DNA from: Candidatus Aenigmatarchaeota archaeon
Lineage (GTDB): Archaea > EX4484-52
Length of the DNA stretch: 64,000 nt
Direction of reading: 5' to 3'
NCBI GenBank assembly: GCA_023137195.1
Contig: JAGLPV010000001.1
Span: 1 to 64,000 of the forward strand
Position 1 is the stretch's first letter. Each line of letters starts with the position of its first letter. A model generated the notes under the pieces. It saw only the letters and a list, made by a program, of their open reading frames with translations. It had not been told where the DNA came from and searched no databases. This document shows positions 1 to 9,109 of the stretch, piece by piece. Both the position numbers and the translations under genes were made by a program.

Positions 1-437
1 TCACTAATTGCCTTTGTCTGTGATGCGGCATTTTCCCCCAGTTTACTCAATCCAGTCTGTAGCGTGTCAAAAACACCGTCAAATAATTTTTTGTGTGCAG
101 GGCTAATCAAACGATTAAAAGCAGACAATGCATCTCTGACATTAGACACATCAAAATCTTTACCCATTTTAATCCAAGTGGAAAATAAATCTTTATAAGC
201 TATAAAATAGCCAACATTACTTTTGATATGTTCCATCGTTTCAGTATCTTCTTCCGAAAGTGCTTTTATATCTTCATCAGAAAAATCTTCTTTTTTTGCA
301 AACTGTAATTCTTTATCAGATAGGTATTTATAAAAAATAAAGCCCAGAATATAATCCTTGTATTCATTCGCTTCAATTTTTGAACGCATTTGGTTAGCAG
401 ATTCCCATATTTTAGCTGCTAATTGTTGTTTATTCAT
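1..437 (-). CDS. hsdM: Type I restriction-modification methyltransferase subunit M, N-terminal part (runs off window)
   Basis: Not in ORF track. Read by hand from ATG at 437: MNKQQLAAKIWESANQMRSKIEANEYKDYILGFIFYKYLSDKE..., the typical HsdM N-terminal domain. Confidence 0.9.
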   Translation of the reverse strand, partial: MNKQQLAAKIWESANQMRSKIEANEYKDYILGFIFYKYLSDKELQFAKKEDFSDEDIKALSEEDTETMEHIKSNVGYFIAYKDLFSTWIKMGKDFDVSNVRDALSAFNRLISPAHKKLFDGVFDTLQTGLSKLGENAASQTKAIS

Positions 438-531
438 ATTATTCATTCCTTTATCTGCTTTTCATTTTGTTCATAAAATAGATAAGAATTACGTCTTTAT
501 ATATTTTCCCCAATAGCTATAGTTATATGTT

Positions 532-618
532 ACTTAACTTTGGCGTTAAGATAAGTTTTGTGAGAGTTAGGGTGAAGCAAACTGTAAGTTTACGTAACCG
601 TTAAATTTTTTGTTATAT
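532..618. other. Degenerate attC-like recombination site (site A)
   Basis: ACTTAAC (532-538) ... GTTATAT (612-618). Aligns with site B: gttaagataagtttt vs gataagagaagtttt, aaactGTAagttt vs aaacctGCAaggttt, and a shared ttgttata end. Long-range pairing is poor. Confidence 0.45.
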
Positions 619-667
619 TCCTCAGAGGGTTGATTTTTAGTGTAATGATGTTTGTCCTCTATCGTTT

Positions 668-832
668 TTTAGGAACTCCCTCTATAAATTAGAAAAATTT
701 GGGAGAGCGAAGCGAACCTCTTAACCTTTGTTAGACGAAATTTTAATTTCGTTGTGGTTTCCGTTGGTCGGTTAAGAGAAGTTTTTCTTTCGAGCGTAGC
801 GAGACTTTATGTCCGTAGGACGGGGGGCTTCC
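668..832. repeat. Structured ~160-bp module, copy 1 (direct repeat of 6321-6490)
   Basis: 668-726 vs 6321-6379 match at 56/59 nt. A second block, ccgttggtcggttaagagaagtttttct, is identical. Downstream GNA hairpins keep their pairing despite sequence changes. Confidence 0.9.
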
Positions 833-863
833 GTTTTTTATAAATTAGCGAGGGACAAATTGA

Positions 864-958
864 ATATAACATCAGGGATAAGAGAAGTTTTTGGCGTAGC
901 CAAAAATTTGGATGGAGAAACCTGCAAGGTTTCGGAATCTCTTATCCTCTTGTTATAC
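864..958. other. attC-like imperfect palindrome (site B)
   Basis: ATATAAC-atcagg-gataagaga ... tctcttatc-ctctt-GTTATAC. Terminal AAC/GTT boxes, inner paired boxes and two internal GNA-triloop hairpins; 95 bp. Confidence 0.65.
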
Positions 959-1228
959 GATTTTTCATAGAAAAACGAGCCAAAGTGCAACGGTTTTTGC
1001 GTAGCAAAAATTGGCGAAGAGTAAAATTTCCATTTCCTGATATATTCTGCGAAGCAGACAATATGTCCGTAGGACAGGGGGGAGTTCCGTTTGTTTTTGT
1101 TTCTGAAAAAGAAGATGGAGGGGGCTTTTATTTTGGTTCTTTTTCTAAAAGAACATTTATGATTGAGAAAATAAGTTATAGATACATTTATAAATATTTG
1201 AGTATATTTGTGGTTATGAGGGGTTAAT

Positions 1229-1375
1229 ATGGAATCAAAAAACATCACATTAAGAGTAAATTCTGAATTATATAATAAATATAGACAATTATGCAAGAAG
1301 AAGGGTTTATTAGTTTCACGACAAGTAGAGATAATGATGGAAGAACAATTAAAGAAAGAGGAAGATCAGGTTTAG
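1229..1375 (+). CDS. Small ribbon-helix-helix (CopG/Arc-like) DNA-binding protein, 48 aa
   Basis: Below ORF-track cutoff. MESKNITLRVNSELYNKYRQLCKKKGLLVSRQVEIMMEEQLKKEEDQV shows the RHH pattern (ITLRV strand, G-turn, SxxVE helix). Preceded by gagggg; stops 3 bp before the helicase ATG. Confidence 0.75.
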   Translation: MESKNITLRVNSELYNKYRQLCKKKGLLVSRQVEIMMEEQLKKEEDQV

Positions 1376-1378
1376 AAT

Positions 1379-4300
1379 ATGGATACTAAACAGACATTGA
1401 ATAAAAAAATAGAATATTGGAAGAAGAAATTAATAGATTTATCCAAAAGAAATAATCTTGTAAATTATCGTTTTACAAAGTCTAAATCCTTAAAAATTAT
1501 TTATCCTAATTTTAAGCAAATCATAGAAGATTTGAATAATGAAAACTCTATACTTTTTTTAAAAAATGAAAGCAAAGAAGCAAAAGAAAGATTATGGTTG
1601 TCTTCTGAAAAAGATTCTGAAGAGAAGAAGAAAGAAGTAGAAGAGGACAGGAAACTAACGACTCTTTATCGTAAAACAAATGAAAATTTTAAAGAATTAG
1701 GAATAAGTACTTGTTTTGTAAGTTTGGGAATCTTGAAATATAAGGAATCTCCCATTTCAGAAATTTATTCGCAAGCTCCTATCTTTCTCTATCCTGTAAC
1801 CTTGAACAGACTTTCCTCTACATCTAAAGATAAACATCGTTTTGAAATTGTTTCAGGTTCAGAAGATATTCAAGTTAATCCTGCATTGGTAGAAAAATTA
1901 TCTCATGATTTTGATATTCATTTACCCGACTTTGAAGAGCAACCGATTGAAGAATATTTAGATTCGATAAAAAAAATAATATCGGGAATGAAAGATTGGA
2001 AAGTTACAGAAGATATTTATATAGATATATTCTCATATCAAAAATATATTATGTTTAAGGATTTAAGTGAACATGATAAACTCTTACATGAAAGTGATTT
2101 AGTCAAAGCATTTATTGGTGATAAAAATGCACTACAAGATGAAATCTCTGAATCTCAAAGAGATGAGTTTGAAGAAGATGCTAATGATGTAGATGTTTTA
2201 CCTGCTGATTCAACTCAAAAAAAGGCGATAGAATTAGCAAAAGCAGGAGTTACCTTTGTTTTACAAGGTCCCCCTGGAACTGGGAAGAGCCAAACAATCT
2301 CAAATATAATTGCTACACTTTTGGAAAAGAAAAAGAAAGTTCTTTTCGTGAGTCAAAAGATGGCTGCTCTTAATGTTGTTCATAAAAGATTAGAAGAGGT
2401 TGGTTTGGGAAGATATTGTTTAAATTTACATAATTACAGAGGAAATAAAAAAGAAATTATTAGACAATTAAATACTGAATTAGAAACTTCTCCAAGAATA
2501 AAAGAAAGTGTTAAAAGATATTCTTTTGCTGACTATATTAATACTCAAAAAGACTTAAATCATTTTTATGACTTTCTATGTAAAAAACATAAGCCTAGAA
2601 CATTATCTATTTATGATATTAGGGGAGAATTAGCAAAACTTCATTCTATCGAAATTCTTGACAAAAATCTTAATGATTTAATTTCTTCTAATGAAGAAAA
2701 GTTTACAATATTATTATCAAAAATTCAAGATTTAGACTTCGTTATTGAAAAAATACCTAGACCAATGGAGAGTATTTATTTTAATTTTAAAACTTCAAAG
2801 AATACAATATTATCAAGAAATAAATTTAAGACATTGGTAGATAGTGCACATCAAATATCAAAAGAGATTTTGGAATTTATCAAAGAAATTAAAAATGAAG
2901 CAAATCTAAACATTCAAACATTAAAACAATTAGAACTATTTTGTGAATTTCATAAAACAGCCAATAAATTAAAAGAGATACCGGAATTTTTTATTTCTGA
3001 AAACTTTGAAGATTATAAAAAGATAATTTCAGATTTAAGTAAAAATATCTTAAAAATTAACGAACTTAAAGAATCTATTGAAGAAATTAAAAAAGGATTC
3101 CCTGAATTTTTCATGTCTGATGATTTCAATGATTATAAAAAAATAATTATCGATTTGAATAAAAATTTAGTGGAGATTAACAACGCTAAACTTAATCTTA
3201 CTCAAAAAGTAATAGAAATGTTTATTGATGAAAATACTGATAATTACGAAAAAACCTTTAAGGAAACTTCATTTTTATCGCGAGTTTTTAATAAAGAATA
3301 CAAAACCGCTAAAAAAGAATTAGAAAGGTTTTCTAAAGAAAAAATAAATCATAATGGTTGGATAAAATTATTTGAGTTAAAGAAGGATTATAAAAAATAC
3401 TTAGATAAGCATTTAAATATAGAAACTCAAAATAAAAACTGTATTAAAAATTTGGGAGATATTTATTCTGAGAATAATTTAAACAATCTCAATAAAAATG
3501 CAGAAGAATTTCAATTTGAAAAATGGTCTGAATTTAAAAAAGAGTTAGCTGAAAAATTAAAAATACACTCCGAGATAGAAACTCAAAATAAAAACGATAT
3601 TAAAAATTTGGGAGATATTTATTCTGAGAATAATTTAAACAATCTCAATAAAAAAGCAGAAGAATTTTCAGAGACATTTAAGAATTCTAAAAATTTATCT
3701 GAGAAATCAGTTAAACTAATTAATTTTTGGTTATCAGAAAAAGAGCGAGAAAATTCATTAAATGAATTAAAAGACAAGATTAAAAATATTGATGATTATT
3801 TATTTAAATCAATATTAAGTGATACTGAAAATCTAGCAGAGATAGAAGACAAAATCCATGAATTTATTGAAAATATAAAATGTTTGGATGATGTTTTAAT
3901 ATTCAAAGAACAATATTCTTCTCTAAACGAAGAGATAAAAGAATTTGTGAAAGAATATTTTAAGGAAAATATAATATCCAAATTAAGTTCTGTATTTTTA
4001 AAAGCATATTATTTGCAATTACTTGAAGAAATTTTAAAACAAAATAACCTGCCCTCCCCCAAAAATAAGGTGGAAATGTTTAGAGAAAAAGATTTTGAAG
4101 TTAGAGATATTAAACGATATAAAATTATGGATTCTATTGAACAAGGTCAGCCCTCTGTAAATTATCATAGTTATGGTGTGAATGATGTTTCTATTTTAAA
4201 AAGAGAAAATGAAAAGAAAAGAAGATTAAAACCAATAAGAGATTTACTTGAAGAGATTCCAGATTTAATATTTTCTTTAAAACCTTGTTTCATGATGAGT

Positions 4301-6187
4301 CCTCTTTCAGTTAGTCAATATATAAATCCCAATAAGATAAAGTTTGATGTAGTTATCTTTGATGAAGCATCACAAATTATGCCCGAAGATGCTGTTTCTT
4401 GTTTGATGAGGTCAAAACAAGCTATTGTTGTGGGAGATACACAACAATTACCACCAACTAACTTTTTTATGAGCCGTCAGGATGATGAAATTGTTGAAGA
4501 AGAAATTGAAGATTTAGAGAGTTTTCTAAGTGAATGTAGTACTAAATTTAGAAGTAAACCTCTTCTTTGGCATTATCGAAGCAAAAATGAACATTTAATT
4601 GCATTTTCAAATAGATTTTTTTATGAACATAGATTGATAACATTTCCTAATGCAAAAATAAAAGATGATTCCGGATTGGACTTTGTTCATGTGAAAACAG
4701 GAGTATATGACCGGGGTAAATCTAGGAAGAATAGAGTTGAAGCAAGAGAAACAGTAAAGAAATACAAAGAATTAAGGGAAAAATTCCCTAAAAAATCAAT
4801 AGGAATTATTGCATTTAGTATCGCACAAGAAAATGCAATTAGAGAAGAATTTAGAGTTGTAGGAATAAATATAGAAGAATCGTTAGATTCTTATCATGAA
4901 GCTTTATTTGTTAAAAATCTTGAAACCGTTCAGGGTGATGAGAGAGATATAATTTTAATAAGTATTGGTTATGGTAAAGATTCTTTTGGAAAATTAAGTT
5001 ATCATTTTGGACCTCTCAATAGAGAAGGGGGTTATAAGAGATTAAATGTTGCTATAACTAGATCAAGATTTAAAACAGTAGTAATATCTTCTATTTCTCC
5101 AGAAGAGTTAGATGAGGATAAAATAAATGTTGATGGAGTTCGTTATTTGAAATATTATCTTGATTATGCAAAAAACAAAGATTTTAATAAATTTTTACAG
5201 ACAACAGAAGGATTAGACTTTGATTCAAGTTTTGAAGAATCTGTTTATGAAGTATTAACAAATGAAGGATTTTCTGTTAGCACCCAAGTTGGCTGTTCGG
5301 GTTATAGAGTAGATTTAGCAATAAAACATCCTAAAAAACCAGGAGTCTATATCTTAGGGATTGAATGTGATGGGGCACAATATCACTCTTCAAGATTTGC
5401 AAGAGATAGAGATAAAATCAGGCAAGGAATTTTAGAAAGTCTTGGTTGGAATATTCATAGAATTTGGTCTGATGATTGGTTGAATAACCGAGAATATGAA
5501 ATAAAAAAGATAAAAGAAAAAGTTGATGCTTTATTAAGGTCAAAGAAAGAAAATTCACAAGATGAATTAAAATTTGAAAAAGTTGAGGATGTAGAAGATT
5601 TTAAAGAAGTTTCTTTAAAGGATAAATATGGTCAATATGAACTTGCTGAATTGCCAAAGTCCGGAACAAAAATAGAATTTGATGGTTATGGTGATATGGT
5701 TTGGGGTGGCAGCAAAGCAAAAGAATTAATGCTGTCTGTTCTGGAAATTGAATCGCCTATTGAAAAAGAATTATTGTATAAAAGAGTTCTTAGTTCATTT
5801 GGAATAAATAAACTCGGTGCGAGGCTAAGGAGAAATTTTGATGATTTGATTAATCAAATGAAAAGAGAATATCCTAATATTTATGTTTCAGGAGAAACGG
5901 TTTCTATAGACCAAATTGAAGGAATTTGTTCTATAAGAATTTCAAAAGAATTTCAAAGACCATTTATTTTAATTCCTAAAGAAGAAATTGGTGGAGCTAT
6001 TGCCGATATTTTAAAAAATACTTTTGGAGCAACAAAAGAAACATTAGTTGCAGATATTGCAAAAGGTATTTTCCATAACAATAGAACTGGTGGGAAAATT
6101 AAAGCGAAGATTGAAGAAGCAATAAAATATTTAGAAAAAGAAAAAATTGTCGATGTTAATGGTGGGAAAATATTTTTGATGAAATAG
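1379..6187 (+). CDS. DUF4011-SF1 (Upf1/DNA2-like) helicase-Vsr-like nuclease-DUF3320 protein; Hhe-like anti-phage defence
   Basis: N-term WKKKLIDLSKRNNL (DUF4011). Walker A QGPPGTGKSQT, DEASQ, GDTQQLPP, VQGDERD, RLNVAITRSR. C-term GIECDGAQYHS...RDRDKIRQGILESLGWNIHRIWS (Vsr/DUF559-like nuclease). Confidence 0.88.
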   Translation: MDTKQTLNKKIEYWKKKLIDLSKRNNLVNYRFTKSKSLKIIYPNFKQIIEDLNNENSILFLKNESKEAKERLWLSSEKDSEEKKKEVEEDRKLTTLYRKTNENFKELGISTCFVSLGILKYKESPISEIYSQAPIFLYPVTLNRLSSTSKDKHRFEIVSGSEDIQVNPALVEKLSHDFDIHLPDFEEQPIEEYLDSIKKIISGMKDWKVTEDIYIDIFSYQKYIMFKDLSEHDKLLHESDLVKAFIGDKNALQDEISESQRDEFEEDANDVDVLPADSTQKKAIELAKAGVTFVLQGPPGTGKSQTISNIIATLLEKKKKVLFVSQKMAALNVVHKRLEEVGLGRYCLNLHNYRGNKKEIIRQLNTELETSPRIKESVKRYSFADYINTQKDLNHFYDFLCKKHKPRTLSIYDIRGELAKLHSIEILDKNLNDLISSNEEKFTILLSKIQDLDFVIEKIPRPMESIYFNFKTSKNTILSRNKFKTLVDSAHQISKEILEFIKEIKNEANLNIQTLKQLELFCEFHKTANKLKEIPEFFISENFEDYKKIISDLSKNILKINELKESIEEIKKGFPEFFMSDDFNDYKKIIIDLNKNLVEINNAKLNLTQKVIEMFIDENTDNYEKTFKETSFLSRVFNKEYKTAKKELERFSKEKINHNGWIKLFELKKDYKKYLDKHLNIETQNKNCIKNLGDIYSENNLNNLNKNAEEFQFEKWSEFKKELAEKLKIHSEIETQNKNDIKNLGDIYSENNLNNLNKKAEEFSETFKNSKNLSEKSVKLINFWLSEKERENSLNELKDKIKNIDDYLFKSILSDTENLAEIEDKIHEFIENIKCLDDVLIFKEQYSSLNEEIKEFVKEYFKENIISKLSSVFLKAYYLQLLEEILKQNNLPSPKNKVEMFREKDFEVRDIKRYKIMDSIEQGQPSVNYHSYGVNDVSILKRENEKKRRLKPIRDLLEEIPDLIFSLKPCFMMSPLSVSQYINPNKIKFDVVIFDEASQIMPEDAVSCLMRSKQAIVVGDTQQLPPTNFFMSRQDDEIVEEEIEDLESFLSECSTKFRSKPLLWHYRSKNEHLIAFSNRFFYEHRLITFPNAKIKDDSGLDFVHVKTGVYDRGKSRKNRVEARETVKKYKELREKFPKKSIGIIAFSIAQENAIREEFRVVGINIEESLDSYHEALFVKNLETVQGDERDIILISIGYGKDSFGKLSYHFGPLNREGGYKRLNVAITRSRFKTVVISSISPEELDEDKINVDGVRYLKYYLDYAKNKDFNKFLQTTEGLDFDSSFEESVYEVLTNEGFSVSTQVGCSGYRVDLAIKHPKKPGVYILGIECDGAQYHSSRFARDRDKIRQGILESLGWNIHRIWSDDWLNNREYEIKKIKEKVDALLRSKKENSQDELKFEKVEDVEDFKEVSLKDKYGQYELAELPKSGTKIEFDGYGDMVWGGSKAKELMLSVLEIESPIEKELLYKRVLSSFGINKLGARLRRNFDDLINQMKREYPNIYVSGETVSIDQIEGICSIRISKEFQRPFILIPKEEIGGAIADILKNTFGATKETLVADIAKGIFHNNRTGGKIKAKIEEAIKYLEKEKIVDVNGGKIFLMK
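3419..3667 (+). repeat. Intragenic duplication: 93-bp copies at 3419-3511 and 3575-3667
   Basis: IETQNKNxIKNLGDIYSENNLNNLNKxAEEF occurs twice; 3 nt differences; period 156 bp. Confidence 0.9.
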
Positions 6188-6320
6188 AGACGCTTCAAAT
6201 AAATTTCTTTTTCGCAGAAAAAGACTATCTGTCCGAAGGACTAAAAGCCCCCTCTTAATAAATTTCGAGCAACGAAGTTGTGAGTCAATATGTGCGTGGC
6301 ACTGCATTATATTTTTTTCG

Positions 6321-6490
6321 TTTAGGAACTCCCCATATAAATTAGAAAAATTTGGGAGAGCGAAGCGAATCTCTTAACCATAGTTATAGAAAGTGCGAAG
6401 CATTTTCCTGTCGTCCCGTTGGTCGGTTAAGAGAAGTTTTTCTACGAGGCGAAGCCGAGACAATCTGTCCCGAAGGGACGAACTCCCCCC
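6321..6490. repeat. Structured ~160-bp module, copy 2
   Basis: Direct repeat of 668-832; lies between the helicase stop and the recombinase. Confidence 0.9.
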
Positions 6491-6521
6491 TTTTTTATTT
6501 AAGGAAATGGAAATTTTATTG

Positions 6522-6571
6522 CGTATAACAAGAGATTAAACGGAATAAATTACGTTTAATCTACCGATATA
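6522..6571. other. Recombinase-proximal candidate attachment site (attI-like)
   Basis: CGTATAAC-aag-agattaaacg...cgtttaatct. 6522-6534 is the exact reverse complement of 947-959, and 6524-6543 matches the reverse complement of 598-617 at 17/20. Confidence 0.5.
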
Positions 6572-6615
6572 GGATGTTATACTTACTTTTATATATTTAT
6601 TTGCAAATAAAAATA

Positions 6616-7434
6616 ATGGATTTGACTGAAAGTGAAATTTTTTTATTAAAATTAAGAAGAGAGATGGAAATAAGAAATTTTTCTTCAAAAACAGTCAAAA
6701 CATATCTTTATTTCGTGGAAAAGTTTCTCGAATATTTGGGGGATTCGGAACTTTGTGAAGAGACAGTTAAAAATTATATGCAAGAACAAATAATGAAAAA
6801 AGAGCCATCTACGGTTTCCTTAAATCTTAGTGCTATAAAATTCTTTTTTAATAAAGTGTTGTATAAAAATATAGACGTTCCTAATCCAAGGAAAAATAAG
6901 AAAATTCCTGAAGTTTTGACTGTTGGGGAAGTCGGAAGATTGATAGGCGCTATAGATAACATCAAGCACAGGTTGATGATAAAAATGCTTTATGGCTGTG
7001 GGTTAAGAGTGAGCGAACTTGTAAATCTGAAAAAATCGGATTTGAATTTTGAGGAAAATCTTATTCATATACGGCTTGCAAAAGGGAGAAAGGACAGGTT
7101 TGTCAAGATTCCTGAGTCCGTCAAAGAACAACTGGAAAGCTATTGTAAACTTGAGGAAAAGGACACATTATTTTTATCGCAAAGAGGAGGGAAATTATCA
7201 ACCGCAACAATACAAAAAATAATCAAAAATTTTTCAAAAAAGGCAGGAATAAAAAAGAATATTTCTCCTCACACATTAAGGCACAGCTTTGCTACACATC
7301 TGCTTGAAGCAGGAATAGATTTGAAGATTATACAAAAATTGCTTGGTCATTCAGACATCAAGACTACGCAGATATATCTGCATGTTTCCAATCAATTGAT
7401 AAGGAATGTGAAAAGTCCGCTTGATTATTTGTAA
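6616..7434 (+). CDS. Tyrosine recombinase, XerA/integron-integrase-like
   Basis: Catalytic R (GLRVSE), K (AKGRKDR), HxxR (HTLRH), LGH, Y (TTQIY). N-term RNFSSKTVKTY SAM-like domain and C-term VKSPLD resemble IntI, but there is no IntI-specific insertion before box II. Start moved to MDLTE, downstream of TATA-like ttttatata (6587-6595). Confidence 0.92.
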   Translation: MDLTESEIFLLKLRREMEIRNFSSKTVKTYLYFVEKFLEYLGDSELCEETVKNYMQEQIMKKEPSTVSLNLSAIKFFFNKVLYKNIDVPNPRKNKKIPEVLTVGEVGRLIGAIDNIKHRLMIKMLYGCGLRVSELVNLKKSDLNFEENLIHIRLAKGRKDRFVKIPESVKEQLESYCKLEEKDTLFLSQRGGKLSTATIQKIIKNFSKKAGIKKNISPHTLRHSFATHLLEAGIDLKIIQKLLGHSDIKTTQIYLHVSNQLIRNVKSPLDYL

Positions 7435-7504
7435 ACAATGTGCAGATAGTATAGAAAACTATTTTAAGATAAACATATATTATATCTAATATATAAAAAA
7501 GAAA

Positions 7505-9109
7505 ATGGTAATTTCAAAAGACATAATCAAACTCGTCAAAACATATAATAAAGCTAATCTCATAAACATATTGAACCATATACAGCAAAAAGAAGGTTTT
7601 TTATCTGAAAAGAATATTGAGTATATTTCCAAAGAACTATCCATGCCAATGGCTAGAATTTATGAAATGGCAAGTTTCTATTCTTTTTTCTCCTTTGAAA
7701 AAAAAGGAAAACATACAATCCGAATTTGCAACAGCCCTTCCTGCTACATGAACAATTCTGCCAATATATTAAAGGCAATAGAAAAGACAATAGGGCTAAA
7801 ATCAGGAGAGTATAATAACATATTTGATTTTGAAATTGCACAGTGCATTGGTTGCTGTGACGAATCACCCGCTATGCTTGTAGATGGTATCTCATACACA
7901 AAACTAACCAATGCAAAAGTCATAGAAATACTAAACAACATAAAATCAGGAAAAAAAACAAAGAGCATTAATTATACAGGAAAACCACCAGGAGAACACG
8001 CAATGAATATACTCCATAAAACAAACTTCATGTCATTGAAAAAAGCAAAATCAATGAGTCCTGAGAATATAATAAAAAAAGTAAAAAAGTCAGGGCTTAC
8101 AGGCAGGGGAGGGGCTGGTTTTTCTACTGGTCTGAAATGGGAATTTGTGAATAAGACAGGAAAAGAAGGCACATTAATATGCAATTTTGATGAAGGAGAA
8201 CCGGGAACATTCAAAGATAAATTTATTGTAATCAATAACACAGAAACATTAATAGAAGGAATTGCCATTGCTTCTTATGCATTGAAATGCAGGCATGCTT
8301 ATATTTATATGAGAGGAGAGTATGATTATCTCAAAGGCAAACTACAGGAGACAATAAACTCTTCAAAAAAAAATCTGGATGGTTTGGAGATAGAAATAAT
8401 CGAGGGAGCTGGTGCTTACATCTGCGGCGATGAGACAAGCATAATGAATTCTATTGAAGGCAAGGCAGGACACCCGAGACACAAGCCGCCATATCCTGCC
8501 CAGAGTGGATTATGGCAGACACCGACTGCAATAAACAATGTCGAAACACTAATCAACACAGCTCTTTTATTTTGTGAAGGATGGAACAATGATTCAAGAT
8601 TATTTTGCGTTTCAGGGGACGTTGAAGAGGGAGGAGTATTTGAAGAAAAGACAGGACTCTCATTTAAGGAACTTATTGGCAAGGCAAAGCCTAAGGAAAA
8701 AGTAAAAGCACTTTTCCTTGGGGCATCAGGTGGATGCATTCCATACGATGCAAATTCCTGTTTTGATTACGATAAAATAAAGCAAAAAGGAGCATCTCTT
8801 GGCTCGTGTACAATAATTGTTGTGGATAAGAATACAGGCATTGTAGAGTTATGCAAAAATATAACGGCTTTTTTTGTCCATGAAAGTTGTGGAAAATGTA
8901 CTCCATGTAGGGAAGGAAATTATCGGATACTGGAGTTGCTTGAAAAGATTACATCCGGCGAGGGAACAAAACAGGACTTGCTGTTGATTGAGGAATTGTG
9001 CGATTTTATTAAGACAACTTCTTTTTGTCCTTTGGGTCAGTCTTCATGTAATAACCTATCAGGGGCATTAAAATATTTTAGGAGAGAATTTGAGAGATTA
9101 TGCAAATAA
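7505..9109 (+). CDS. NuoE/HydC-NuoF/HydB fusion, diaphorase subunit of [FeFe]-hydrogenase
   Basis: N-term [2Fe-2S] CNSPSC...CIGCC. FMN/NADH motifs GLTGRGGAGF, CNFDEGEPGTFKD, GAGAYICGDET. [4Fe-4S] ESCGKCTPCREG...CPLG. Confidence 0.92.
   Translation: MVISKDIIKLVKTYNKANLINILNHIQQKEGFLSEKNIEYISKELSMPMARIYEMASFYSFFSFEKKGKHTIRICNSPSCYMNNSANILKAIEKTIGLKSGEYNNIFDFEIAQCIGCCDESPAMLVDGISYTKLTNAKVIEILNNIKSGKKTKSINYTGKPPGEHAMNILHKTNFMSLKKAKSMSPENIIKKVKKSGLTGRGGAGFSTGLKWEFVNKTGKEGTLICNFDEGEPGTFKDKFIVINNTETLIEGIAIASYALKCRHAYIYMRGEYDYLKGKLQETINSSKKNLDGLEIEIIEGAGAYICGDETSIMNSIEGKAGHPRHKPPYPAQSGLWQTPTAINNVETLINTALLFCEGWNNDSRLFCVSGDVEEGGVFEEKTGLSFKELIGKAKPKEKVKALFLGASGGCIPYDANSCFDYDKIKQKGASLGSCTIIVVDKNTGIVELCKNITAFFVHESCGKCTPCREGNYRILELLEKITSGEGTKQDLLLIEELCDFIKTTSFCPLGQSSCNNLSGALKYFRREFERLCK

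Follow-up and report, generated by a model that had tools for sequence, protein, structure and literature searches.

Here we describe a 5.6-kb gene unit from a DPANN archaeon that is probably a cassette in an integron-like array for gene capture, with a folded recombination site that is split between the two ends of the cassette and extended by complementary stretches, here called clamps. The unit lies close to the start of contig JAGLPV010000001.1 from Candidatus Aenigmatarchaeota archaeon (assembly GCA_023137195.1), of which the first 64,000 nucleotides (nt) were analysed. This whole stretch is referred to as the window; positions are counted from its first letter and features are on the + strand unless stated otherwise. 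The unit carries a helicase gene as cargo and is followed by the gene of a tyrosine recombinase of the Xer type. In an initial annotation, made from the letters alone, the two ends of the unit had been described as four nested inverted repeats that would fold in single-stranded DNA into one branched stem.

The four repeats are exact reverse complements at the positions given at that time: 947-959 with 6522-6534 (13 bp), 1022-1038 with 6502-6518 (17 bp), 1076-1087 with 6480-6491 (12 bp) and 1118-1130 with 6242-6254 (13 bp). A comparison of the coordinates upheld their strict nesting, and the local hairpins described between the distant helices were found as well. The small neighbouring unit 611-871, for which the same logic had been proposed, indeed has two exact pairs, 611-620/862-871 (10 nt) and 651-657/853-859 (7 nt). 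Using a repeat search that tolerates mismatches, we obtained longer versions of two of the helices, namely 1022-1044/6496-6518 (23 nt, 91%) and 942-959/6522-6539 (18 nt, 89%). One extra complementary pair of 10 nt, 1079-1088/6325-6334, is not nested with the other helices.

When exact matches of at least 10 nt were chained between 940-1228 and 6188-6540, the best nested chain came to 55 nt, while 300 dinucleotide shuffles gave a mean of 1.8 and a maximum of 22 nt. The longest single match in the shuffles was 12 nt, and any match of at least 10 nt was seen in 51 of the 300. The joined ends (940-1135 plus 6200-6540) fold with DNA parameters at -94.7 kcal/mol, compared with -54.1 +/- 5.2 kcal/mol for 100 shuffles (z = -7.9), and the minimum-energy fold holds all four helices. 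A chance origin of the nested repeats is excluded by the chain shuffles and by the fold shuffles.

The initial annotation had also stated that the unit has no classical local site. This did not hold, since we found an attC-like hairpin site, here called S, at each border: a weaker copy S0 (524-622), the best copy S1 (856-962) and a degenerate site, S-min (6518-6598), which is a candidate for an attI-like site. The stretch 856-962 recurs in a DNA search in 26 of the 42 genomes of the order, and 27 aligned copies have one plan in common. The site opens with ATTG and an r box whose last letters are TAAC, which a short spacer without pairing separates from the first half of a 10-bp stem (L). Inside this stem come AAGTT and a hairpin, then AAATTTGG and another hairpin, whose loop is mostly CTGCAAG. 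After the second half of the stem, another spacer leads to an R box that starts with GTTA. Both TAAC and GTTA are invariant across the 27 sites.

The structure of S was drawn from the window copy, which is itself among the 27 aligned sequences. On the MAFFT alignment 86% of the cells are paired, compared with 34-46% when the partners are slid. Changes on both sides have occurred in 20 of the 27 base pairs, and the covariation score was reached by no shuffle. Within the L stem, both sides have changed in 8 of the 10 pairs, and the unpaired spacer between the boxes measures 3-6 nt. A covariance model built from this alignment (R1) found 61 sites at E <= 0.01 in 30 sources comprising 251,907 bases, with up to 7 sites per contig. 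By this model, sites are present in 32 of the 42 genomes and in 10 of the 13 genera of the order. In the window it gave three sites, S0 with 46.9 bits (E = 7e-8), S1 with 120 bits (E = 7e-26) and, marginally, S-min (hit 6515-6598) with just 21.9 bits (E = 0.09). With a loose motif, named genome records gave 80 listed loci, of which the model confirmed 28; the remaining 52 were unmatched and are probably due to chance. The confirmed loci have titles with Woese-, Pace-, Nano-, Aenigmat- and Iainarchaeota and similar labels. S sites were also seen on contigs with titles from outside DPANN, namely L104 (2550 bp, Candidatus Peregrinibacteria) and L106, L110, L133, L158 and L163 (uncultured Methanosarcinales archaeon). 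These contigs could be mis-binned episymbiont DNA or could reflect a real spread.

Consecutive sites follow a rule that links the start of each cassette to its end. We compared 33 consecutive site pairs, of which 27 have canonical GTTA/TAAC boxes; the 5.6-kb unit, cassette 2 of the window, is among the six left out. In the 27 cassettes, the six variable positions after GTTA match the r box of the next site in a mean of 4.85 of 6 positions, while the controls gave 3.15 for the r box of the own site and 3.38 for random sites. The next site matched better than the own r box in 23 cassettes and worse in two, with two ties. Such a match between the start and end boxes is the footprint of a former circle, as known from integron cassettes. 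It also explains the outermost repeat of the unit, where the R box of S1 pairs with the r box of the next site. As a correction to the initial annotation, the two boxes GTTATAC and GTATAAC are placed at 952-958 and 6523-6529. The pair 611-620/862-871 of the small unit is explained by the same circle footprint.

Which flank the site core travels with was used to place the crossover. Seven site pairs share the upstream flank (before r, at least 80% identity), and their cores are unlike, with 43-66% identity against a background median of 63%. The downstream flank (after R) is shared by 39 site pairs, whose cores are often alike, with 66-93% identity where the flank is at least 90% identical. Thus, the site core travels with the DNA after R, which points to a crossover between TAA and C of TAAC on this strand. 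In gene orientation this would be a cut between G and TTA, the canonical integron position. A crossover between G and TTA of the R box on the + strand (joint fold z = -9.3) was dropped, since the cores travel with the DNA after R.

With the crossover placed in TAAC, cassette 2 would extend from 870 to 6528 and cassette 1 from 538 to 869, and S-min would stay with the recombinase gene. The limits 947-6534, originally proposed for the unit, therefore fit less well than about 870-6528. Homology to a congeneric locus stops at most two bases from the TAAC of r2, at 6530. The circle joint that follows from these limits (6200-6528 plus 870-1135) folds at -110.5 kcal/mol, compared with -61.8 +/- 4.8 kcal/mol for shuffled sequences (z = -10.0). 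The predicted fold is a single branched hairpin, in which the helices called z, x and y below, the R/r boxes and the L stem follow each other in series and the two hairpins of S1 are at the tip. Among the assembled Logan contigs of four cold-seep metagenome runs from one study, compared over 400-7600, none joins 870/952 to 6528/6576, either as a deletion or as a circle, which is neutral. Two contig joints, from 1079 to 6322 and from 682 to 6336, fall in repeated modules and are indistinguishable from other copies.

Inside the boxes, the ends of many cassettes would be held together by further helices, the clamps. In each cassette, helices were sought with a right half that stops 9-14 nt ahead of the C in TAAC. 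Such a clamp, called y, scores at least 8 in 22 of the 33 cassettes and is 11-21 positions long; in 20 of these 22 the right half is anchored 9 nt before the C of TAAC. Its left half always starts with AGT, 40-76 nt past GTTA, and its right half always ends with ATT (of ATTG), which results in an invariant G.T pair. Otherwise, the clamp sequences are unrelated between cassettes. In the window, y has 19 positions, 18 Watson-Crick pairs and the invariant G.T, formed by 1020-1038 (AGT plus 16 nt) and 6502-6520, and the right half ends in the ATT of the conserved ATTG directly before the r box. Many cassettes have a second, G-rich helix x, and some large ones a third helix z. In the window the G-rich left half of x (1076-1088) has its C-rich partner at 6480-6491 or, alternatively, at 6325-6334, and z is formed by 1118-1130 and 6242-6254. 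Between R and y lies a structured module of the left arm, which contains a stem that varies among cassettes and yet keeps its complementarity, the motif AGTGCAAYG and a hairpin with a GNA loop.

A clamp score of at least 12 was reached by 19 of the 33 own pairs, compared with 20 of 1056 mismatched pairs of left and right arms, and at least some of the mismatched pairs that pass have one clamp in common (the window, L027 and L016; L035 and L002). The comparison was also made on named DPANN records of other lineages, where a score of at least 11 is reached by 7 of 12 cassettes, compared with 1 of 132 mismatched pairs.

The initial annotation had proposed to look for compensatory changes in homologous cassettes with different cargo, and such changes were found. 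In the window the sequence of clamp y is TAAAATTTCCATTTCCT, while G004 has AATTTTCACTT and G031 has TTAAATTTTCAC, each time with the exact complement at the opposite end. Between the window (...CCATTTCCT/AGGAAATGG...) and L108 (...CCGTTTCT/AGAAACGG...), y differs by a double change from A-T to G-C. The helix x exists in three complementary versions, AGGGGGGAGTTC/GAACTCCCCCCT in the window, GAGGGAGAGTC/GACTCTCTCTC in G004 and GAGGGGGAGTCC/GGACTCCCTCTC in G031, the latter two with one G.T pair each. The helix z is kept in the cassettes of G004 and G031 and is missing from both arms in G021.

These homologous arms enclose different cargo: a helicase like Hhe in the window, IetA and IetS in G004, a restriction-modification pair of the CfrBI type in G031, and a GNAT gene together with unknown genes in G021. 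Other arrays carry GmrSD as well as type I-like and DpnII restriction-modification genes. Among the small cassettes scanned in Pfam, five of seven gave no family match. The congeneric locus G021:C50 is syntenic with the window, with site, arms, cargo, arms, site and recombinase in the same order. Window positions 858-1087 and 6323-6530 match 661-891 and 4968-5172 of the congeneric L027, and the downstream recombinase gene is 83% identical over 537 nt. The homology between the window and G021:C50 stops at 1087 and restarts at 6323, which are the edges of the pair 1079-1088/6325-6334. Between the window and G004 it reaches 1152 and restarts at 6236, around z.

The pairs and loops are also biased towards one strand. 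Among the clamp pairs we counted 319 Watson-Crick pairs, 27 G.T, no A.C and three others. On the opposite strand each G.T would be an A.C, so that these counts favour one folding strand. GNA-triloop hairpins around 62 sites are found 125 times on the S strand and seven times on the other strand. A review of mini-hairpin DNA (PMC13037366) puts the melting temperature of d(GCGAAGC) at 76.5 C, that of r(GCGAAAGC) at 39 C and that of a variant with a pyrimidine loop at 33 C, and d(GNA) loops are termed very stable in another paper (PMC3201870). The greater stability of GNA loops as DNA favours single-stranded DNA over RNA as the folded form. From the GNA loops and the counts of G.T and A.C, the S strand would be the one that folds. 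This strand is antisense to 37 of the 50 cargo open reading frames (ORFs), and thus to most genes; the folding strand would hence be the bottom strand, with the site 3' of the gene, as in integrons. The helicase cassette of the window has the minority orientation.

The recombinase next to the array scores 257.9 bits against NF040815, XerA_Arch (cutoff 220), and 216.2 bits, in two stretches, against TIGR02249, the integron integrase (cutoff 265). It aligns from end to end with XerA of P. abyssi (4a8e, 174 bits). With IntI4 of Vibrio (2a3v) the alignment has two blocks, residues 9-177 to 5-181 and 194-270 to 242-318, and 16 residues stand where IntI4 has 60, so that about 44 are skipped. Judged from this alignment, the protein of 272 amino acids (aa) is without the insertion of the integron integrases.

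Thirty-six copies from the order were placed in a tree, in which the 11 copies with S or S-min within 1.5 kb all fall into one clade of 14 rows (support 81/88). This clade mixes genome families, and its three unlabelled rows are all on short contigs. The other 22 rows group by family and behave as housekeeping XerA would. A second copy in the genome of the window, 37% identical (C45:31160-31963, corresponding to L001 1161-1964), is within this group of 22. Four arrays (the window, G021:C50, G021:C82 and G004:C78) have the recombinase gene immediately after their last site. A minimal dyad site resembling S-min abuts the 3' end of the recombinase gene in G010, G024, G014 and G025. The second copy on C45 lies about 1.7 kb from another S site (L001 3681-3779), with one ORF in between, and this site adjoins a 6.8-kb unit with a restriction-modification set of the DpnII type.

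We suggest the following mechanism. The clamps y (19 positions), x (12-13 bp) and z (13 bp) would join the first ~180 nt of the cassette to its last ~290 nt. In the excised circle, both halves would flank one S site and could fold as single-stranded DNA into a branched hairpin of ~600 nt. Integration between TAA and C would then split this folded structure and leave its halves 5.6 kb apart. The clamps may lengthen and stabilise the folded site. Within the array, they may also tie one flanking site to the other and thereby lead the recombinase to excise exactly one cassette. The repeats, their conservation with compensatory changes, the match between the two ends of each cassette, the link to one recombinase clade and the strand bias were observed; we infer that this DNA folds in vivo, that the recombinase cuts at S, that the clamps act in this process and that recombination takes place.

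A more far-reaching version of this idea seems possible to us, although we hold it with somewhat less than even confidence. The array would be the DPANN analogue of an integron that works with a plain Xer-type recombinase on a branched single-stranded site of several hundred nt, which is cut in two by integration. Its clamps would serve as an intramolecular guide, zipping the flanking sites together for precise excision at any cassette size. The GNA mini-hairpins would keep the strand folded and might even prime the second strand on the excised single-stranded circle.

Several observations weigh against the reading as a cassette with a split, clamped site. The congeneric locus G021:C50 keeps the arms (89-91%) and the recombinase gene, and its cargo is entirely unrelated; an exchange of cargo inside conserved arms is unexplained by recombination of whole cassettes at TAAC. 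In 11 of the 33 cassettes there is no clamp scoring at least 8, and the 6.8-kb unit on C45 of the same genome has mismatched arms. This unit looks composite, as its right arm bears the x' type of another clamp family. Moreover, the loci were picked by their likeness to the window and come from related genomes, which makes the counts interdependent. For the small cassette 1, the circle does not fold better than shuffles (z = -1.2), S-min with its 21.9 bits is a marginal match to the site model, and the side of the crossover rests on few pairs (7 upstream and 39 downstream). Inside S, 75 G.T stand against 74 A.C, and the strand bias is confined to the clamps and loops. Finally, a survey of tyrosine recombinases (PMC8138268) calls the insertion of IntI essential for integron function.

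The paired ends could also be a historical footprint without present function, left for example by the insertion of cargo in the loop of an earlier palindromic 'empty cassette' like 611-871 or by fold-back copying, with arms that are merely inherited. It would suit such a history that G021, G004 and G031 share their arms and differ in cargo, which always lies in the loop of the nested helices, that a unit of the same logic without an ORF adjoins (611-871), and that the repeated module A, described below, resembles a rearranged site. We nevertheless regard this explanation as unlikely, because double-sided changes have left the pairing intact, both in y (window compared with L108) and in the three versions of x, and because 27 G.T against no A.C points to selection on one strand. 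In addition, the clamp sequences are unrelated, and yet 19 of the 33 cassettes score at least 12. That the structure acts in RNA, as a panhandle transcript joining 5' and 3' ends or as structured non-coding RNAs with a role in processing, stability or circularisation, is very unlikely in our opinion. The folding strand is antisense to most cargo ORFs and cargo orientation is mixed, and the invariant pair would become a C.A mismatch in the sense mRNA. It is true that the wobbles would be G.U in RNA of the S strand, that the unpaired motifs ATTG, AAATTTGG and AGTGCAAYG are conserved and that T-runs follow several of the hairpins. However, C-GNA-G triloops are much more stable as DNA according to the review cited above (PMC13037366), and exchange breakpoints at most two bases from the TAAC/GTTA boxes are a DNA-level pattern. 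A known structured RNA family was rejected as well, as Rfam 15 gave only two tRNAs in the window at the gathering score and nothing at E <= 1 in 400-6700.

We consider it highly improbable that the two units are a non-autonomous transposon, that is, a 261-bp element similar to a miniature inverted-repeat transposable element (MITE) and its 5.6-kb version with cargo, with long degenerate terminal inverted repeats and a transposase elsewhere. A transposon would fit the inverted ends of both units and the MITE size of the small one; the modules are present in several copies in the genome and have 6-12x the local depth in community contigs. The ends of a transposon are common to all of its copies, whereas the inner repeats here vary among cassettes, and a unit has an end that matches its own start and not a family consensus. 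Furthermore, there is no target-site duplication (941-946 differs from 6535-6540), no transposase was found in or beside the unit, and the ends always lie inside the conserved S site, in arrays.

We return to the reading as a cassette of an integron-like array. The earlier idea of a recombination substrate assembled from distant cassette ends has largely stood: the pairing is selected, the cargo differs and compensatory changes are present. It has not stood in so far as it implied a separate kind of element, since the cassette is of the integron type and its site is split and unusually long. The element is a variant of the integron kind. As in integrons, a tyrosine recombinase lies beside the array, the folded sites combine AAC/GTT cores with an unpaired spacer and a second stem that covaries, and each cassette starts with a complement of its own inverse core, the footprint of a circle. 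Most genes point the same way and have the site on their 3' side, the bottom strand would fold, and the cargo consists of defence genes and ORFans. Unlike in integrons, the recombinase is similar to XerA and without the insertion of IntI, and the site is three-way, with conserved GNA-loop hairpins and a structured left arm. The complementarity also runs further than 6 nt past the core, as one to three clamps that reach 180 and 290 nt into the two ends of the cassette. We know of no such clamp extension for attC.

Archaeal integrons whose IntI proteins have the additional domain have been reported (Ghaly et al. 2022, PMC9668308); most of the finds in that report were clusters of attC without an integrase, and Aenigmatarchaeota are listed as one of the phyla that have attCs. 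It is possible that S sites have already been recorded as attCs of archaea. For sedentary chromosomal integrons, it has been stated in a preprint that they store defence systems (bioRxiv 10.1101/2024.07.02.601686).

The archaeal XerA/dif system (PMC8371274; structures 4a8e and 5hxy) is similar to the window in its enzyme, which scores above the cutoff of NF040815 and aligns end to end with XerA of P. abyssi. In contrast, the window enzyme belongs to a separate clade that departs from the genome phylogeny and stands beside cassette arrays, and a second, vertically inherited copy is present. Moreover, its presumed sites are many folded hairpins and not one double-stranded dif of the 11-6-11 form. 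XerCD is also the enzyme by which the phage CTX-phi is integrated at an attP that folds from a single strand. As in our reading of the window, an enzyme of the Xer type without the IntI domain acts there on a site folded from one strand; CTX-phi involves one phage genome with one site, while the window has a cassette array with private clamps.

The pdif modules are flanked by ordinary double-stranded XerC/XerD sites of 28 bp in inverted order. In Acinetobacter plasmids they are discrete gene modules, like the cassettes described here, and are thought to be moved by Xer recombination (bioRxiv 10.1101/2024.04.09.588662). The borders are different, as those of our cassettes are hairpins of ~100 nt and their ends pair over a long distance. 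With repetitive extragenic palindromic (REP) sequences and bacterial interspersed mosaic elements (BIME), palindromic intergenic repeats and MITEs, the S sites have in common that they are multi-copy, modular, hairpin-rich and non-coding. They differ from these in their fixed order and strand, the covarying architecture, the arrays in which they bound genes and the complementary ends that are specific for each cassette. Our literature searches brought up no paper that describes a cassette system of the Xer type or end clamps in archaea. Two features were found in none of these papers: a clade of Xer-type recombinases as the partner of an array, and clamp helices that extend the folded site far into both ends of a cassette.

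Gene capture in the manner of integrons is regarded as dependent on the domain specific to IntI. If the proposed mechanism is true, recombination at folded DNA would be older or more general than integrons. It would also explain the clusters of attC-like sites without an integrase in archaea. The pairing of clamps across 5.6 kb of cargo offers a handle on how the ends of a cassette are matched. Moreover, S sites would mark swappable defence islands (Hhe-like helicase, Iet, GmrSD, restriction-modification) in genomes that are hard to annotate.

The remaining features of the locus can be placed on this framework. The array is preceded by the 5' part of a type I restriction-modification methylase on the - strand (3-446; HsdM N-terminal domain, Pfam PF12161, 63.8 bits), which is truncated by the start of the contig and is an array neighbour outside the array itself. 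In S0, C538 is the last base of the r box, and GTTATAT, the R box, occupies 612-618. Cassette 1 (538-869) has no ORF of at least 60 aa. It contains the S0 core, R0, a short left arm, a clamp (650-657/853-860), the first copy of module A (A1, 668-840) and the r1 box through TAA. The extension of R0 pairs with r1 in five of the six variable positions, compared with only two of six for R1.

S1 is composed of r1 at 863-870 (AATATAAC), one half of the L stem at 875-885 (L''), a hairpin with a GTA loop at 888-906, the conserved AAATTTGG, a hairpin with a GCA loop at 917-933, the other half of the stem at 938-947 (L') and R1, GTTATAC, at 952-958. The order within cassette 2 is S1 core, R1, left arm, cargo, right arm and r2 through TAA. 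The left arm begins with module B1 (959-1019), which has a hairpin at 961-975, the motif AGTGCAAC at 984-991 and a hairpin with a GTA loop at 994-1010 within a stem GCCAA/TTGGC. B1 is common to the cassettes of G021 and G004 with 90-94% identity, and further cassettes repeat its layout with different stems. Contigs of the community part from the window at 1022, two bases into clamp y. Between the left halves of y and x there are two GNA-triloop hairpins, 1046-1058 (GAA loop) and 1064-1076 (GTA loop).

The left arm is followed by an ORF of 48 aa (1229-1375), which resembles a ribbon-helix-helix protein by eye alone and gave no match in Pfam, NCBIfam or PADLOC. The main cargo gene (1379-6187) codes for a protein of 1602 aa with DUF4011, an SF1 helicase and an MTES_1575 nuclease, as assigned by Pfam. 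In NCBIfam it scores 1122.8 bits against ProA (cutoff 1500) and 746.5 bits against Hhe (cutoff 2000), both under the cutoff, and in PADLOC it gives 1161.9 bits for PDC-S37 and 523.3 bits for Hhe. By these profile scores, the protein resembles the anti-phage proteins Hhe and ProA. Within its gene there are two tandem duplications, at 2971-3190 (units of 120 nt, 71%) and 3364-3667 (units of 156 nt, 81%), in the middle part rich in Lys and Asn and between the helicase motifs. Between the clamps and the first cargo gene, several large cassettes have a small palindrome (TTCTTTTTCTAAAAGAA and variants), which is found at 1131-1158 in the window, at 7390-7460 in L002 and at ~5850 on the minus strand in L031. 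This palindrome may be an operator or promoter element.

The right arm opens with two GNA-triloop hairpins, 6206-6224 (GCA loop) and 6231-6241 (GAA loop), directly before the right half of z. It further contains the second copy of module A (A2, 6321-6479), whose final hairpins are at 6446-6459 and 6467-6479. Beyond clamp y, S-min consists of r2 at 6521-6529 (GCGTATAAC), a dyad (6533-6542/6553-6562) and R2, GTTATAC, at 6576-6582. The recombinase gene (6616-7434) starts 33 nt past R2 and had been overlooked in the initial annotation of the unit.

The two copies of module A form a direct repeat, with 82.6% identity between 668-805 and 6321-6461, 92% between 668-733 and 6321-6386, and complete identity between 761-788 and 6416-6443. 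In general, the noncoding flanks are modular and repeated, with many short hairpins that have C-GNA-G loops on one strand only. Such flank modules also border other genes on contigs C45 and C56 of this genome (1.42 Mb, 57 contigs).

Module A is ~170 nt long and looks like a circularly permuted S site. Its order is AAATTTGGGAGA, a hairpin, a half-stem of the L' type, a GTTATAG or GTTAGAC box, a short variable hairpin, a half-stem of the L'' type with AAGTTTTT, and two GNA hairpins. Besides the two copies in the window (668-840 and 6321-6497), it was found at 3788-3950 of L001 (C45), at 9680-9750 of L002 (C56, at the contig end), at 3894-4067 and 7741-7894 of L026, at 2502-2678 of L032 and at 4968-5142 of L027. 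In the community contigs, the depth of the repeat modules (882-1122 and 6184-6424) is ~6-12x that of the cargo, with ~180 and 86 compared with ~15 in one run. Hence, these modules are far more numerous in the community than at this locus.

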